A DNA stretch of 64,000 nucleotides, taken from sequence record NC_054924.1. One strand, written 5' to 3'. The position numbers and the translations under genes were made by a program. Numbering within the stretch: position 1 is the first letter of the stretch; the number at the start of each line of letters is the position of its first letter. This document shows, piece by piece, positions 13,885 through 30,601 of the stretch. This DNA is from Escherichia phage vB_EcoM_Lutter. A model generated the notes under the pieces. The model was not told the DNA's origin, ran no database searches, and saw only the letters and a list, made by a program, of their open reading frames with translations.

Positions 13885-14979
13885 ATGGCAATTGTTAAAG
13901 AAATAACTACTGATTTAATTAAAAAGTCCGGTGAGAAAATTTCAGCCGGACAGAGCACTAAATCAGAAGTAGTAACTAAAACATACACTGCCCAGTTTCC
14001 AACTGGGCGTGCTAGTGGTAATGACACTACAGGGGACTTCCAGGTAACAGATCTATATAAGAATGGATTATTATTTACTGCATACAATATGTCATCTAGG
14101 GATTCTGGAAGTCTTAGATCGATGAGATCTAACTACTCTTCTTCATCTTCGAGTATTTTAAGTACAGCTAGAAACACTATTAGTAGTACAGTATCAAAAC
14201 TATCAAATGGATTAATATCAAATAATAATTCAGGAACAATAAGTAAAGCTCCTGTCGCAAACATTCTTTTACCGAGATCTAAATCTGATGTTGACACATC
14301 ATCACATAGATTTAATGATGTTCAAGAAAGCCTTATCAGTAGAGGCGGAGGTACTGCTACTGGTGTGCTAAGTAATGTTGCTTCAACTGCAGTATTTGGG
14401 GCACTGGAAAGTATAACACAAGGTATAATGGCTGATAATAATGAACAGATTTATACGACAGCCAGAAGTATGTATGGTGGTGCTGAAAATAGAACTAAAG
14501 TGTTTACATGGGATTTGACTCCACGTTCAACAGAAGATTTAATGGCTATTATTAATATCTATCAATATTTTAACTATTTTTCTTATGGTGAAACAGGTAA
14601 ATCTCAATACGCTGCTGAAATAAAGGGGTATTTAGATGATTGGTATCGTTCTACGTTAATTGAACCTTTATCTCCGGAAGACGCAGCTAAAAATAAAACA
14701 CTATTTGAGAAAATGACAGCAAGTTTAACGAACGTTCTTGTAGTTTCAAACCCGACAGTTTGGATGGTGAAAAACTTTGGTGCAACATCTAAGTTTGATG
14801 GAAAAACGGAAATATTTGGTCCATGCCAAATACAGAGCATTAGATTTGATAAAACACCTAATGGTAACTTTAACGGATTAGCTATTGCTCCAAACCTCCC
14901 TAGTACATTTACTCTCGAGATTACTATGAGAGAAATTATCACGTTAAACCGTGCTTCTTTATATGCGGGGGCTTTTTAA
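13885..14979 (+). CDS. 48: Baseplate-tail tube junction protein gp48
   Basis: 364 aa. Confidence 0.85.
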   Translation: MAIVKEITTDLIKKSGEKISAGQSTKSEVVTKTYTAQFPTGRASGNDTTGDFQVTDLYKNGLLFTAYNMSSRDSGSLRSMRSNYSSSSSSILSTARNTISSTVSKLSNGLISNNNSGTISKAPVANILLPRSKSDVDTSSHRFNDVQESLISRGGGTATGVLSNVASTAVFGALESITQGIMADNNEQIYTTARSMYGGAENRTKVFTWDLTPRSTEDLMAIINIYQYFNYFSYGETGKSQYAAEIKGYLDDWYRSTLIEPLSPEDAAKNKTLFEKMTASLTNVLVVSNPTVWMVKNFGATSKFDGKTEIFGPCQIQSIRFDKTPNGNFNGLAIAPNLPSTFTLEITMREIITLNRASLYAGAF

Positions 14980-15944
14980 TGTATTCTTTAGAGGAATTTA
15001 ATAATCAAGCAATAAACGCAGATTTCCAACGTAATAATATGTTTAGCTGCGTTTTTGCAACAACTCCATCAACTAAAAGCTCTTCGTTGATAAGTTCAAT
15101 TAGCAACTTTTCTTATAATAACTTGGGCCTAAATTCAAATTGGTTAGGATTAACTCAAGGTGATATTAATCAGGGAATTACCACGCTAATTACAGCTGGC
15201 ACACAAAAACTAATAAGAAAATCAGGAGTCAGTAAATATCTTATTGGTGCCATGAGTCAACGTACTGTCCAGAGTTTATTAGGCTCATTTACAGTCGGTA
15301 CATATTTAATCGATTTCTTTAATATGGCGTATAATTCATCTGGATTGATGATATATTCTGTAAAAATGCCAGAGAATAGATTATCTTATGAAACTGACTG
15401 GAACTATAATTCTCCTAATATTCGTATAACTGGGAGAGAATTAGACCCTTTGGTTATTTCATTTAGAATGGATTCAGAAGCTTGTAACTATCGTGCAATG
15501 CAAGACTGGGTTAACTCTGTTCAAGACCCAGTAACTGGACTACGTGCTTTGCCGCAAGATGTCGAGGCAGATATTCAGGTTAATCTTCATTCTCGTAATG
15601 GATTGCCTCATACTGCGGTGATGTTCACCGGATGCATTCCAATATCAGTGAGCGCTCCTGAGTTATCATATGATGGAGATAACCAAATAACTACATTTGA
15701 CGTTACTTTTGCGTATAGAGTGATGCAGGCTGGAGCAGTTGATAGGCAAGCTGCGCTTGAATGGCTTGAATCTGCTGCTATAAATGGTATTCAAAGCGTT
15801 CTCGGAAATAGTGGAGGTGTTACTGGACTATCTAATTCGCTTTCACGACTCAGTAGATTAGGGGGAACTGCAGGAAGCATTTCAAACATTAATACTATGA
15901 CAGGAATTGTCAATTCGCAAAGTAAAATATTAGGAGCAATATAA
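14979..15944 (+). CDS. 54: Baseplate-tail tube junction protein gp54
   Basis: 321 aa; paralogous flavour to gp48. Confidence 0.85.
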   Translation: MYSLEEFNNQAINADFQRNNMFSCVFATTPSTKSSSLISSISNFSYNNLGLNSNWLGLTQGDINQGITTLITAGTQKLIRKSGVSKYLIGAMSQRTVQSLLGSFTVGTYLIDFFNMAYNSSGLMIYSVKMPENRLSYETDWNYNSPNIRITGRELDPLVISFRMDSEACNYRAMQDWVNSVQDPVTGLRALPQDVEADIQVNLHSRNGLPHTAVMFTGCIPISVSAPELSYDGDNQITTFDVTFAYRVMQAGAVDRQAALEWLESAAINGIQSVLGNSGGVTGLSNSLSRLSRLGGTAGSISNINTMTGIVNSQSKILGAI

Positions 15945-15948
15945 CAAC

Positions 15949-15978
15949 GGGGACCTTTCGGTCCCCATATTTTTATTT
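15949..15978 (+). terminator. Rho-independent terminator after gene 54
   Basis: ggggacctttcggtcccc hairpin followed by a T-run. Confidence 0.7.
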
Positions 15979-16263
15979 GCGGAATGAAATGAAAGCAGAA
16001 ACTGAAGCAACTAAACTGTCTTCAATATAAACTTCAATTTTTACCGGAGCTTCTGACTCAAATTTACCTGTTACTACACCCTGAAAAATACTTTCAGTCT
16101 GTTCTGGCTTTGAAAAATTTTCAGAAGGAAAAATTCCGAACTTTTTATCTGTTCCGAAAATTTTGATAAATTCATCATAAACTGCTTCGTTAAAAGCATT
16201 ATCAGCAGGAATAACGCCTTCAACTACAAGTTCTTGACCTAAAAAGCGTAAAGAAGATTTCAT
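15973..16263 (-). CDS. Hypothetical protein downstream of alt (alt.-3-like position)
   Basis: 96 aa ORF with an RBS (GAGGAA) and the repeated early-promoter module immediately upstream. Confidence 0.55.
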   Translation of the reverse strand: MKSSLRFLGQELVVEGVIPADNAFNEAVYDEFIKIFGTDKKFGIFPSENFSKPEQTESIFQGVVTGKFESEAPVKIEVYIEDSLVASVSAFISFRK

Positions 16264-16270
16264 TTTGTGT

Positions 16271-16324
16271 TCCTCATGTTATGTCAGTAAGACTACTATA
16301 ACACAACACGAGGGACTTGTAAAC
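16271..16324. repeat. 54-bp promoter/leader module, copy 1 (identical to 30548..30601)
   Basis: Exact 54-nt identity with the second locus; contains GTTTAC and TATAGT hexamers on the minus strand. Confidence 0.9.
16295..16324 (-). promoter_or_regulatory. Early sigma70-type promoter (GTTTAC ... TATAGT)
   Basis: -35 GTTTAC and -10 TATAGT on the minus strand, upstream of ORF 15973..16263. Confidence 0.6.
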
Positions 16325-16680
16325 TACATTTTGAACTTTTTAGTACGCGTAATAGGCATGCGTCAATTTTATACTGTTTCATTGTTTGAAGAGCAGTATC
16401 AAAAACAGCATTAATGACGCCAATTGGATTTCCACCCAAGTTTTTAAGTTTAACTAATGATAGTTTCTCATTAACACCTATCATTACGATATGCATCATT
16501 TTGTCGCCTGGTTTAACGTTTTATCTGTATCACCGCCAGAGGTGTATGTACAAAATCTAAATCCAGGAAGCACGCTTTCTTCGCCGGCTTGAATAGCAAA
16601 AATTTGTGGTATTTTATGCTTAGGATTTAAGTTAACAACCGGCGCCGAAGCGCCGTCAAATAATTATGTAATAAGTTCCA
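16296..16680 (-). pseudogene. Decayed partial duplicate of the alt 5' region (alt paralog remnant; T4 alt.-1/alt.-2-like)
   Basis: DNA and protein similarity to alt codons ~1-120 (MMHIVMIGVNEKLSLVKLKNLGGNPIGVINAVF vs MMHIVPFTLTAKGSIAKLKGLGPSPINYINSVF); the copy of the first codons reads MELIT then stop; frame broken. Confidence 0.7.
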
Positions 16681-16684
16681 TGAT

Positions 16685-18781
16685 TTATCCTTGAACGAAC
16701 TTGTAAGGCATGTTTGCAATATCTATGCAAGACGCAATAATTCCAAGAGATGATTCTACTTTCTGTTTAACATTTGATGAAACAAATGATGCAAAGTCAA
16801 CTCTGTCTTCTATTTCAATATCACCTGTCATTGCAACCAATTCACCAGTTTCCATTAAATGGTCTCCATCATAGATTACCGATTCGGTGAGCTCTTCCGT
16901 GGTCATAACTTCAGCTTGAATGAGTTTTGTATTATTAGATGTTGTTCCGTCATTATTAGAAGCATCAGTTATTTTATTAACTTTGACCATCAATCCACGC
17001 GGTAGAATAACTTCAGCTTCTGTTGCTATTCCGAGACTTCCTGGATATACAACATTAACTTTATGAGCTCCATCAATTGCCCATCCTATTTGAACTTTAA
17101 CGTATTCAGGATTTTCTTTATACGCTCTTATTTCGTTTGGATTAATAGTTATTCCTTCTTCATTTTTATCAACTGTTAATTCATTGCGAGCTTCTGGTTC
17201 TAAAAGACCAATACCAGCATGTGTAATTCCAAAACGTCCAAAAATGATAGGAGTTAAAGAAGTAGATACAAAATTTCTGAAATAGAATACTTTATTTTTA
17301 ACTAGTGCTTCGTATATAGGAGCAGTCATACTTTGAGCACGATAAACTGTAATGCCTTCTGGTATACGATCACCATTTTCAAAAGCAGAATCTAAATTAG
17401 TTATAGCAGCTTCAATTTCTTTTTCACTCATTACTTCATAACGTTCTGGATCATAACGACCCAAAAGAAGATTATTGATGTCAGTATATCCTGAACCGCA
17501 ATACTCTCTAATGCCACGCTTTTGTGATGGAGTATATTTAGAACCATCACGGGCAATAGTAATATCAATCATTGGACCTGCACCAATTCCAGAGAAACTA
17601 TAAATCATTCTTTTGAGGAATTTAGTTTTTGTCGCGTTCCAGGAATTTTTAGTTATTTCTTCCCAGACTTCATCTGGCTGTCCTTTACGGGTTTTATTAT
17701 GTTTATCAAGCCAAGTATCTTTATATTCTTCAAATAATTGATTAACAGCTGCTGCGTATTTCTCTAAACATTTTATTGAAGTAGTCGGTTCATTTTTAAT
17801 CGCATTAAGAATTACATCTTTAATTTTTTCAGAAACTTCATTAACCTCACTTTTTGAAAAGAATTTATAGTCATAATGAAGTTCATCTGCAGTTCCTTCG
17901 GCAATGATTTTTGCTGCCTTAGTTTTAGAAGCTAATGAATTAATTCCAATTTTCATTTCTTCTGCTTCGGGAATTAAAGGTGCAGTAGCTGGTTTATTAA
18001 AATTAGCTGCTGTAGATTCATACTTCTGGAATAATTCACTTTCAAATCTAGAAGACTCTAATGATTGACTTTGTGCAATTGCTCTACGGGAAATTTTAAC
18101 TTTAACGATTACAGCTTGGTCAGAACGTTTATCATTTTCTTGTGCAATAGATGCTGCAATTGCCTCATTTTTAGTTACTTGAGCTCCAGTATCTTTATTG
18201 ATATAAACATCACCGACCTTCGATTCAACTTTAGTAAAGAGCTCAGTACTAATTTCCGGAACCCCTGGAATGTCTTCTAGTGATACATTTTTGCGATGTA
18301 TAAGAATATATGCATACTTTTTATCATAATCCCAGAGTTCCTTAAGAAGGACGTATCTGCCACCTGAACGACTACGGATAAGTCTATCAGCAATAACTTG
18401 AATTTGTCGAGCTTGACCAGCAGTTTTAGACTTAAGAATACGGAGCATACAGGCATCAATTTTATACTGACGCATTGTTTGCATTGCAACAGTAAAAACC
18501 GAATTGATATAATTAATTGGGCTTGGACCAAGACCTTTCAATTTAGCAATTGAACCTTTAGCGGTTAATGTAAAAGGAACAATATGCATCATTTTATCGC
18601 CCATCTTTAAATCGCGATTAGTATCACCTCCAGATGTATAGGTACATAAACGAAAACCTGGTTGTTCAATTGCGTCATCAACATGAACTGAAAAAATTTG
18701 TGGTATTTTCTTCTTTGGATTTAAGTTTGTAATTGGAAGAGTAGTATCTTCGTCAAATAATTCTGTAATTAGTTCCATCAT
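16685..18781 (-). CDS. alt: Alt, virion-packaged ADP-ribosyltransferase
   Basis: 698 aa; sequence and position between gene 54 and gene 30. Confidence 0.85.
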   Translation of the reverse strand: MMELITELFDEDTTLPITNLNPKKKIPQIFSVHVDDAIEQPGFRLCTYTSGGDTNRDLKMGDKMMHIVPFTLTAKGSIAKLKGLGPSPINYINSVFTVAMQTMRQYKIDACMLRILKSKTAGQARQIQVIADRLIRSRSGGRYVLLKELWDYDKKYAYILIHRKNVSLEDIPGVPEISTELFTKVESKVGDVYINKDTGAQVTKNEAIAASIAQENDKRSDQAVIVKVKISRRAIAQSQSLESSRFESELFQKYESTAANFNKPATAPLIPEAEEMKIGINSLASKTKAAKIIAEGTADELHYDYKFFSKSEVNEVSEKIKDVILNAIKNEPTTSIKCLEKYAAAVNQLFEEYKDTWLDKHNKTRKGQPDEVWEEITKNSWNATKTKFLKRMIYSFSGIGAGPMIDITIARDGSKYTPSQKRGIREYCGSGYTDINNLLLGRYDPERYEVMSEKEIEAAITNLDSAFENGDRIPEGITVYRAQSMTAPIYEALVKNKVFYFRNFVSTSLTPIIFGRFGITHAGIGLLEPEARNELTVDKNEEGITINPNEIRAYKENPEYVKVQIGWAIDGAHKVNVVYPGSLGIATEAEVILPRGLMVKVNKITDASNNDGTTSNNTKLIQAEVMTTEELTESVIYDGDHLMETGELVAMTGDIEIEDRVDFASFVSSNVKQKVESSLGIIASCIDIANMPYKFVQG

Positions 18782-18801: not shown

Positions 18802-18809
18802 TATTTATA
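18802..18809 (-). promoter_or_regulatory. Late promoter (TATAAATA on the minus strand) upstream of alt
   Basis: Plus-strand TATTTATA about 20 nt upstream of the alt start. Confidence 0.5.
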
Positions 18810-18830
18810 AAATTAAAGGCCCGAAGGCCT

Positions 18831-19019
18831 TTAGTAATCTAGTGGTAAGAGAGTACGATATATTTCAAACTTTGGTCCTTTTTCATAGGCATCAAATGTT
18901 TCTGTAAATTTATTATAAGCGTATGCATCTACAAATTCGAGAATGACTTGTGATACAGAAGTAGAAACATCTCCACCTTCTTTTTGAGCAATGACAATTG
19001 TTTCTAAGTAAGCTTTCAT
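18831..19019 (-). CDS. Hypothetical small protein
   Basis: 62 aa ORF between gene 30 and alt; a hairpin overlaps its 3' end. Confidence 0.45.
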   Translation of the reverse strand: MKAYLETIVIAQKEGGDVSTSVSQVILEFVDAYAYNKFTETFDAYEKGPKFEIYRTLLPLDY

Positions 19020-20479
19020 AGACCAGTTACCTCATGAAAATCACCAAATACATCCTCGAATGTATTAGCTTTAGTTTTATCTTCACGTAAACGAATCGCA
19101 ATCGGAAGAAATAATTTAACGTAATCAGTGCGGCCATCAGATTTTAACCAACCGTTGCATTCGCACTCTAGAATTTTTCCAATATAATAATTTTGGTTTT
19201 CCATAATGCGAGTACGGTCAAGTTCATGTGATTTTACACCGGCTTTATCTTTTAAGCCTGAACCAGCATTTACCTTAATTTTTCCACACTCTGACTCAAG
19301 AATAAATCCACCCGCTTTAGTAGGGTCTTTACGGTGAGGATAAATTCCTACAATTTTTAAATCAACATCAATTACTTCTTTAAATTTATAGAGATTTTTT
19401 GAACGAGCATTTTCCCATAATCCATCGATATTTTTGAGAATAATACCTTCAAGACCTTGGTCAATATACTTTTTATAAATTACCTTAGCTTCATCTAGGT
19501 TATTTACTACCTGGTTTTCAATTAAAATTACTTTATCATAGCCTGATGTCATTTGTTCTAGTTTAGAAAAACGTACATCATATTTTAAACGAAACGCCGG
19601 AAGACCGTATATTTCTACCAACGGGACATAATCCCAGACCTGAAACTTCATGCATTGAGCTTCTTTTTCGGAAATGGTTCCCTTTAAAGATTTATTAGCG
19701 ATTCCATTAGAAGTAGTACGTGATTCAGCTACTTCGGCGAATTCTTTGGCTTTACTAATTTCAGGATAAGCATCAAAAAGAAAATCTAGGCCTTCTGGCT
19801 CCTTTTTAACTTGCTCATGGTATACCAATTCGCCATCAATTAACACGCCTTCTGGATGAATCTGGCGGGCTTCAGCGGTCATTTTGATTAATTCTTCCTT
19901 AAGAAGATCTAATCCTAGATATTCATTACCGGCTCGTGATAAAAGACGAACATCATCTAATTCATCACCTCTGACTTCGGCAAAGCACCGAGCCCCATCA
20001 GCTTTTAACTGGGCAAAGGCTGGAAATTTGATATTCTTATTAATGCCTTTTTCATCATAAGAACTTGCCAGCATTTGAGGTTGTTCAGGAATTAAACCTG
20101 GCCAAACTTTGTTTGCAATAGATACTGAAGCACCACATTCAAGGTCTCGCATCATCACTCGACGCAAAACTTCAGCATCATCTTTTTTACCATCGGTGAT
20201 ATATCCAGTTAATTCCTCAATTGCTGCATTTCCAGTCAATTTCCGAGTAGCTAATGTGAATTCAATGAAGTCAAGCATATCGGTAAGAGTCAACATTCCA
20301 AAACCCTGGGTAGCAATACCAGGTTTAGGCCATTTCTTGATATAATACTGCAGCCCACGAGAATAAGTCAGACGATATACTCGTTTAAGCAATTCATTAT
20401 CTTTATTCTTTTCAAGAATTGCTTGCTTCTGCTTAGTTGAACCAATAGATGCTATTTCGTTCAGAATTTTAAGAATCAT
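19016..20479 (-). CDS. 30: ATP-dependent DNA ligase
   Basis: 487 aa; adenylation motif KADGAR; N-terminus MILKILNEIASIGSTKQKQAILEKNKDNELL. Confidence 0.95.
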   Translation of the reverse strand: MILKILNEIASIGSTKQKQAILEKNKDNELLKRVYRLTYSRGLQYYIKKWPKPGIATQGFGMLTLTDMLDFIEFTLATRKLTGNAAIEELTGYITDGKKDDAEVLRRVMMRDLECGASVSIANKVWPGLIPEQPQMLASSYDEKGINKNIKFPAFAQLKADGARCFAEVRGDELDDVRLLSRAGNEYLGLDLLKEELIKMTAEARQIHPEGVLIDGELVYHEQVKKEPEGLDFLFDAYPEISKAKEFAEVAESRTTSNGIANKSLKGTISEKEAQCMKFQVWDYVPLVEIYGLPAFRLKYDVRFSKLEQMTSGYDKVILIENQVVNNLDEAKVIYKKYIDQGLEGIILKNIDGLWENARSKNLYKFKEVIDVDLKIVGIYPHRKDPTKAGGFILESECGKIKVNAGSGLKDKAGVKSHELDRTRIMENQNYYIGKILECECNGWLKSDGRTDYVKLFLPIAIRLREDKTKANTFEDVFGDFHEVTGL

Positions 20480-30547: not shown

Positions 30548-30601
30548 TCCTCATGTTATGTCAGTAAGACTACTATAACACAACACGAGGGACTTGTAAA
30601 C
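30548..30601. repeat. 54-bp promoter/leader module, copy 2 (identical to 16271..16324)
   Basis: Exact identity to copy 1. Confidence 0.9.
30572..30601 (-). promoter_or_regulatory. Early promoter (GTTTAC ... TATAGT) upstream of alc
   Basis: Same hexamers as copy 1. Confidence 0.6.

Follow-up and report, generated by a model that had tools for sequence, protein, structure and literature searches.

The window analyzed here, a single stretch of 64,000 nucleotides, comes from a T4-like phage of the genus Tequatrovirus. Its segment 15900..18900 is 99.5% identical to that of Escherichia phage vB_EcoM_FJ1 and ~97% identical to T4-type records (96.8-99.5% DNA identity among the Tequatrovirus records listed), and alt is so annotated in these records. 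The gene order ligase, alt.1, alt, remnant, alt.-3 and gp54 matches that of T4. On the strand that carries alt and alt.-3, the remnant, which is the subject of this analysis, lies in the interval from the alt stop codon to the alt.-3 promoter, and its ATG begins 3 nt past the alt stop codon. The features of the locus are as follows, with coordinates of the window and strand.

13885..14979, + strand: gp48
14979..15944, + strand: gp54
15973..16263, − strand: alt.-3, 96 aa, DUF5498 (Pfam PF17602, E 5.4e-64), the intact neighbor that bounds the locus downstream
16271..16324, − strand: sigma-70-type early promoter (GTTTAC-17-TATAGT), leader and Shine-Dalgarno of alt.-3
16296..16681, − strand: alt-paralog remnant, a probable pseudogene equivalent to T4 alt.-1 plus alt.-2 (from alignments to alt, the Shfl2 paralog and T4)
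16296..16499, − strand: 67-aa ORF MMHIVMIGVN...SSKCSLQVPRVVL, counterpart of T4 alt.-2 (from the ORF list and the T4 annotation)
16335..16343, − strand: probable deletion junction, with a single surviving 9-bp direct repeat CTAAAAAGT
16519..16522, − strand: A-run, A5 in intact copies and A4 here, with a frameshift at ancestral codon 54
16641..16654, − strand: GC hairpin GGCGC-TTCG-GCGCC at codons 10-14 of the remnant (RNA fold −12.8 kcal/mol)
16664..16681, − strand: mini-ORF MELIT followed by TAA (ATG GAA CTT ATT ACA TAA)
16685..18781, − strand: alt, intact, 698 aa, packaged ADP-ribosyltransferase (from the ORF), the reference copy for the repeat
18831..19019, − strand: alt.1
19016..20479, − strand: DNA ligase gp30

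The product of alt carries the Pfam domain PF03496 (ADPrib_exo_Tox, E 1.9e-36, residues 379-628). A preliminary description of this DNA had placed a repeat of the first codons of alt, recognizable at both the DNA and the protein level, at 16296-16680. In the MAFFT alignment, 16296..16681 (−) aligns with the 5’ end of alt at 18390..18781 over the first ~117 codons. The blastn search of the remnant against the window gave 70.5% identity over 210 nt (E 5.6e-20) and 74.6% over 59 nt, and tblastn of the Alt N-terminus against the remnant matched 35/63 aa (56%) and 38/62 aa (61%) in different frames, with a joint E of 9e-36. These statistics rule out chance similarity, and the repeat holds at both levels, with significant similarity between 16296..16680 and 18390..18781 (~70% in DNA). 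The interval itself needs correction at both ends: the ATG begins at 16681, and the last ~36 nt (16296..~16334, encoding the terminal ...SKCSLQVPRVVL and its stop codon) have no homology to the alt 5’ region. This part combines out-of-frame sequence from the very 3’ terminus of the lost paralog described below with the alt.-3 promoter region. Neither the 67-aa ORF of the remnant nor the unshifted 128-aa form found in phage AV121 has a Pfam match.

In many close relatives, the match at this locus is 1.7 kb longer. In Shfl2, T2, RB32 and RB14, alt is followed immediately by an intact gene of 2,058 nt, annotated as ‘Alt-like ... ADP-ribosyltransferase’ or ‘alt.-2’ (‘alt.-2’ in RB32 and RB14, Shfl2p198, and EcT2_00208 in T2). 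The 685-aa product of this gene aligns end to end with the Alt of the window (42% identity, E 1e-159). It contains PF03496 (E 3e-20, residues 416-620) inside the segment that is deleted from the window, as well as motifs resembling the R, S-T-S and E-x-E catalytic motifs, which we read by eye in the alignment. The locus is orthologous, and the window differs in having no such intact gene: the catalytic ADPrib_exo_Tox domain is absent from its remnant. A probe for the deleted segment matched 407 phage records, with coverage of 80% or more in 402, and a probe spanning the junction aligned contiguously in 92 records, T4 included, indicating that the intact gene is the majority state; about four-fifths of the related genome records keep an intact second Alt-like gene. 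The carriers of the remnant junction comprise T4 and its laboratory derivatives together with wild isolates such as FJ1, slur03/08/14, SG1, F1, AV121, fPS-2 and others.

The remnant diverges by ~30% from the 5’ end of the neighboring alt and by only 2-5% from the 5’ end of the intact paralog, being 95-98% identical to the first 351 nt of the paralog, to its last ~20 nt and to the promoter downstream. Since the remnant is far closer to the full-length paralog than to alt, the whole gene must have been duplicated, and the 42% identity of Alt and the paralog makes this duplication an old one. We therefore regard 16296..16681 as a pseudogene left over from a second Alt-like ADP-ribosyltransferase gene, once full-length and in tandem immediately downstream of alt, and give this reading a probability of about 0.9. 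The preliminary description had proposed a different origin, in which only the first ~120 codons of alt were copied in tandem and then decayed. The remnant does span only the N-terminal ~117 codons and directly follows alt, and the T4 RefSeq note likewise speaks of ‘a duplication of the first part of gene alt’. Nevertheless, such a partial duplication is already contradicted, and highly improbable, for three reasons: the remnant matches the 5’ end of a 2,058-nt paralog present in ~400 records at 95-98% and alt at only ~70%, its 3’ end matches the 3’ end of the paralog, and it breaks off at a 9-bp repeat that lies within the paralog. What stands of the earlier proposal is a decaying, alt-derived tandem duplicate that adjoins alt and carries a stop codon and a frameshift; the restriction of the duplication to the N-terminal region does not.

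The remnant follows the paralog almost base for base for the first ~350 nt and then jumps to the last ~20 nt, leaving the window without the 1,699 bp between the 5’ and 3’ ends of the paralog. The intact gene of Shfl2 contains CTAAAAAGT twice, at nt 340 and nt 2039; these copies are separated by 1,699 nt and differ in codon phase, and a single copy survives in the window. Intact genomes have 2,121 nt between the alt stop codon and the alt.-3 start, compared with 421-422 nt in nine of the ten remnants examined (421 nt in the window, T4 and four other remnant carriers) and 412 nt in F1. The junction is identical in all ten remnants, and in the other records listed for the junction-spanning probe the alignment ends exactly at the junction (query position 396). 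A loss of 1,699 bp shifts the reading frame, this number not being divisible by 3, and the fusion thus creates the novel out-of-frame tail SKCSLQVPRVVL, the stop codon of which falls within the −10 element of the alt.-3 promoter. The promoter region itself survived the deletion, and the promoter scan scored it with 10/12 matches (− strand, 16323..16295). T-even phages are known for deletions between short direct repeats, as in the rII deletion literature, and a junction with a single repeat copy is the scar that would be expected of such an event, by slipped mispairing or another microhomology mechanism.

The direction of change, deletion as opposed to insertion, would follow from parsimony and reading-frame logic. 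The GenBank note of RB32 mentions an ‘apparent insertion in alt.-2’, which would make the short form ancestral and the long ‘alt.-2’ of RB32 and others the product of an insertion into it. That history is extremely improbable, as the inserted DNA would have to consist of precisely the 566 codons that the short form lacks, PF03496 included, all in frame and in the same order as in Alt from end to end. In addition, the short form has an out-of-frame junction with one copy of the 9-bp repeat while the long form has two, which is the signature of a deletion, and the long form is under strong purifying selection while the short form is not (see below).

Compared with the intact orthologs, the reading frame of the stump is broken by the 1,699-bp deletion, by a 1-nt frameshift and by a nonsense codon. 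We compared these lesions in an alignment of ten remnants and four intact copies. First, the stump was said to read MELIT and then stop, which we find at 16681..16664: the TAA at 16664..16666 replaces the GAA (Glu-6) of the intact copies. Codon 6 is GAA in all four full-length copies and in four of the ten remnants, and TAA in the other six. A sequencing or assembly artefact is rejected for this codon, given that the exact 44-mer with the TAA occurs in 43 independent phage records. The further TAA carriers that we checked (HY03, fPS-2 and pSe_SNUABM_01) are remnants in 3/3 cases, so that a TAA predating the deletion has no support. Second, the frameshift that had been placed ahead of the MMHIV block is real and consists of a 1-nt loss in the A-run at 16519..16522. 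This loss is present in seven of the ten remnants (absent from SG1, PTE-Eco15 and AV121), and it is also not an artefact of sequencing or assembly, as it is common to T4 and several wild isolates. Downstream of it, the 67-aa ORF follows the ancestral frame from codon 62 to the junction and then continues into the out-of-frame tail.

The two small lesions are distributed among the remnants in all four combinations. AV121 has neither lesion and retains a 128-codon ORF; SG1 and PTE-Eco15 have only the TAA at codon 6; T4, T4_ev151 and Pu-Krd-SF1 have only the A5 to A4 frameshift; and the window, FJ1, F1 and ESh36 have both, F1 with an extra 9-nt deletion. The occurrence of all four TAA/frameshift combinations means that the order of these two steps is not a simple series, and suggests either that remnant alleles have recombined or that slippage has recurred.

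The intact paralog is constrained by purifying selection and the stump is relaxed. The four intact copies have 21 polymorphic codons, of which 20 are synonymous and one is a conservative K/R change, while the changes private to the remnants comprise seven missense and three disruptive changes against five synonymous ones. The difference between intact and remnant substitutions has a Fisher p of 0.0012, or 0.0001 with the disruptive changes counted, in a sample of only four intact and ten remnant sequences that are mutually related and shuffled by recombination; the sample is small and non-independent, and the direction is clear.

Based on these comparisons, we propose the following history of the locus. 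A full-length paralog would have stood directly downstream of alt in a T4-like (Tequatrovirus) ancestor, produced by an ancient whole-gene duplication of alt whose two copies now encode proteins of 42% identity. In one lineage, a 1,699-bp deletion between the CTAAAAAGT repeats would have removed codons ~118-680 including the catalytic domain, fusing the first 351 nt to the final few codons in a different frame and giving the 128-codon ORF, the state seen in AV121. Slippage in the A5 run could then have lost one base and split this ORF in two, the state of T4 with alt.-1 and alt.-2. In the allele of the window, a GAA to TAA change at codon 6 would have killed the first ORF. The resulting remnant encodes no enzyme and, most likely, yields no stable product.

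The T4 genes allow a direct comparison. T4 alt.-1 (T4p199) and alt.-2 (T4p198) of NC_000866 occupy the same position between alt and alt.-3, and the 501 nt of the window at 16230..16730 are 97.6% identical to NC_000866 and 98.0% identical to other T4 records. The window and T4 share the junction ...GTACTAAAAAGTTCAAAATGTAG..., the A4 run and the 67-aa alt.-2 ORF. They differ in the first ORF, which in T4 is an open 61-aa alt.-1 overlapping alt.-2 by ATGA and in the window ends after five codons at the TAA of codon 6, and in a few other point differences. The comparison with the alt.-1 and alt.-2 ORFs that the preliminary description had suggested thus identifies the same pseudogene as the T4 pair, with the same junction and frameshift, and the codon-6 TAA of the window is an additional lesion on a remnant of the same origin.

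Expression data from T4 bear on whether the stump has been kept for a function, either as a 67-aa small protein or as an RNA whose UUCG hairpin serves as a stabilizing or attenuating 3’ element of the alt mRNA. Time-resolved transcriptomics of T4 detected alt.-1/alt.-2 RNA in the class ‘middle’, like alt (PMC9697503, Table S2). The 67-aa ORF is open in all ten remnants, which together with transcription in T4 makes a small product possible. The GGCGC-TTCG-GCGCC hairpin is invariant in all 14 aligned sequences, intact and remnant, with its folding energy of −12.8 kcal/mol, and 92 records retain the remnant rather than losing it altogether. Several observations weigh against a function. The 67-aa ORF has accumulated the missense changes G83S and F111L and a 3-codon deletion, and an ORF of ~200 nt is expected to stay open by chance for a short time. 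The hairpin is equally conserved as coding sequence in the intact paralogs, so that its conservation is not specific to the remnant. In the window, the partner for translational coupling of the 67-aa ORF is destroyed: with the first ORF ending after five codons, ribosomes would no longer reach the ATGA overlap of the T4 type. In the time-resolved proteomics of T4, Alt.-1 and Alt.-2 were undetected while Alt and Alt.-3 were detected (PMC9697503, Table S2), although small proteins are easily missed by shotgun proteomics. We found no terminator between alt and the remnant in the window, and it is therefore likely that the alt transcript runs on into the remnant and takes it along as a passive 3’ tail without function. 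Terminators are annotated on either side of the alt to alt.-3 unit, and terminator-like hairpins occur ahead of alt (18814..18833) and behind alt.-3 (15947..15968). Overall, retention of the stump in ~90 records as a structured 3’ extension of the alt mRNA, or as a 67-aa fragment of the Alt N-terminal domain that modulates the packaging or processing of Alt in the head, is very unlikely. If it were nevertheless functional, the loss of a second packaged ADP-ribosyltransferase in the T4 lineage would be an adaptive remodeling rather than simple decay. The earlier suggestion that the fragment could still yield a short Alt N-terminal peptide fares poorly on the same grounds, namely the 5-codon ORF, the lost coupling and the undetected T4 proteins; a stable Alt-like peptide from the copy in the window is unlikely.

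The stump is a feature that was already known, and as such it is ordinary. According to the T4 RefSeq note, alt.-1 and alt.-2 together go back to an old duplication of the initial portion of alt that acquired a stop codon, and Nolan et al. 2006 listed the T4 pair among paralogous duplications of adjacent genes (PMC1524935), the only relevant mention of ‘alt.-2’ in the literature that we searched. The same paper describes 44RR ORF187c and ORF188c and RB49 ORF183c as paralogous alt duplications adjacent to alt, both full-length and partial (PMC1524935); these belong to different genera and are comparable with the locus of the window by their published description. In Yersinia phage fPS-2, g192c is the same remnant with the same codon-6 TAA allele and is annotated as ‘similar to N-terminal of RNA polymerase-ADP-ribosyltransferase Alt; putative pseudogene’. 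Its annotation as a 279-nt ORF, as in the frameshift-free SG1, suggests that the fPS-2 copy is unshifted.

What our analysis adds is the clarification that the long form is probably ancestral and is constrained, while the short form would be the product of a microhomology deletion and is still decaying. The T4-centered wording (‘duplication of first part’, ‘insertion in alt.-2’) hides the fact that it is T4 that is unusual, and work on T4 cannot address the function of the intact second Alt paralog. In the literature searchable here we found no study of this paralog and no description of a second packaged ADP-ribosyltransferase in T2 or T6. The locus provides a clean natural series of gene death, a deletion followed by a frameshift and a nonsense mutation in either order. 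As a discovery it carries little weight, being a real but ordinary pseudogene.

The preliminary description also regarded the homologous tracts as a substrate for recombination, which is plausible and has a natural precedent in Yersinia phage PST. PST has one chimeric alt gene in which the first ~300 nt are 98-100% identical to alt and the remainder is 90-100% (mostly at least 95%) identical to the second paralog. The crossover, an unequal one, lies within the shared tract CAAACAATG, in frame, and one gene length is deleted. Like the remnant of the window, the PST chimera is a rearranged alt/paralog tandem pair with a short shared tract in the region of N-terminal homology. Unlike it, the fusion of the 300 nt of alt 5’ sequence to the paralog body is in frame and leaves one apparently functional gene, not a stump. 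An exchange of the PST kind in the arrangement of the window would delete alt and leave a dead fusion. A probe across the PST junction matched PST alone among the phage records searched, and we therefore rejected the idea that such chimeras are common. Together, the remnant locus and the PST recombinant illustrate microhomology-driven rearrangement in T-even genomes.

The alt gene itself varies in length among these phages. The alt ORF is 2,097 nt (698 aa) in the window, is annotated with 2,094 nt in FJ1, SG1 and SP1, and measures 2,088 nt in T4_ev151 and AV121 and 2,049 nt in T4, F1 and fPS-2. One and the same remnant junction thus accompanies different alt alleles, which is consistent with frequent recombination in the region. 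The HY03 record shows, in place of the expected alt of ~2.1 kb, no more than a 645-nt ‘Alt-like’ CDS, with hypothetical ORFs on the opposite strand over the remainder; this could reflect a genuine disruption of alt in HY03 or a fault in the sequence or annotation of the record.

Several putative regulatory elements surround the locus. An exact 54-nt direct repeat is present on the − strand at 16271..16324 and, 14.3 kb away, at 30548..30601. The copy upstream of alt.-3 contains the early promoter, the leader and the Shine-Dalgarno GAGGA, and the second copy lies between the stop codon of rnlA (gene 63) and the start of alc; T4 likewise gave a second match in the search with this repeat. An identity of 54 nt is well beyond a promoter consensus and suggests gene conversion or a duplicated expression cassette. 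We considered the alc-promoter repeat as a participant in the deletion and rejected it, since the identity starts at GTTTAC, downstream of the junction, and since RB32, with its intact gene, shares that promoter sequence; the deletion and the repeat have no connection. The GGCGC-TTCG-GCGCC hairpin stands in an otherwise ~35% GC genome and might act as an RNA stability or attenuation element between alt and the paralog. Finally, the T4 late-promoter-like sequence TATAAATA, which we take to be the T4 late-promoter consensus, is located at 18802..18809 (−), ~20 nt upstream of the alt start. Within 18802..18833 (−), the terminator-like hairpin AAAGGCC-TTCG-GGCCTTT, also with a UUCG loop, is directly followed by TATAAATA, and the two form a compact terminator-promoter junction between alt.1 and alt.
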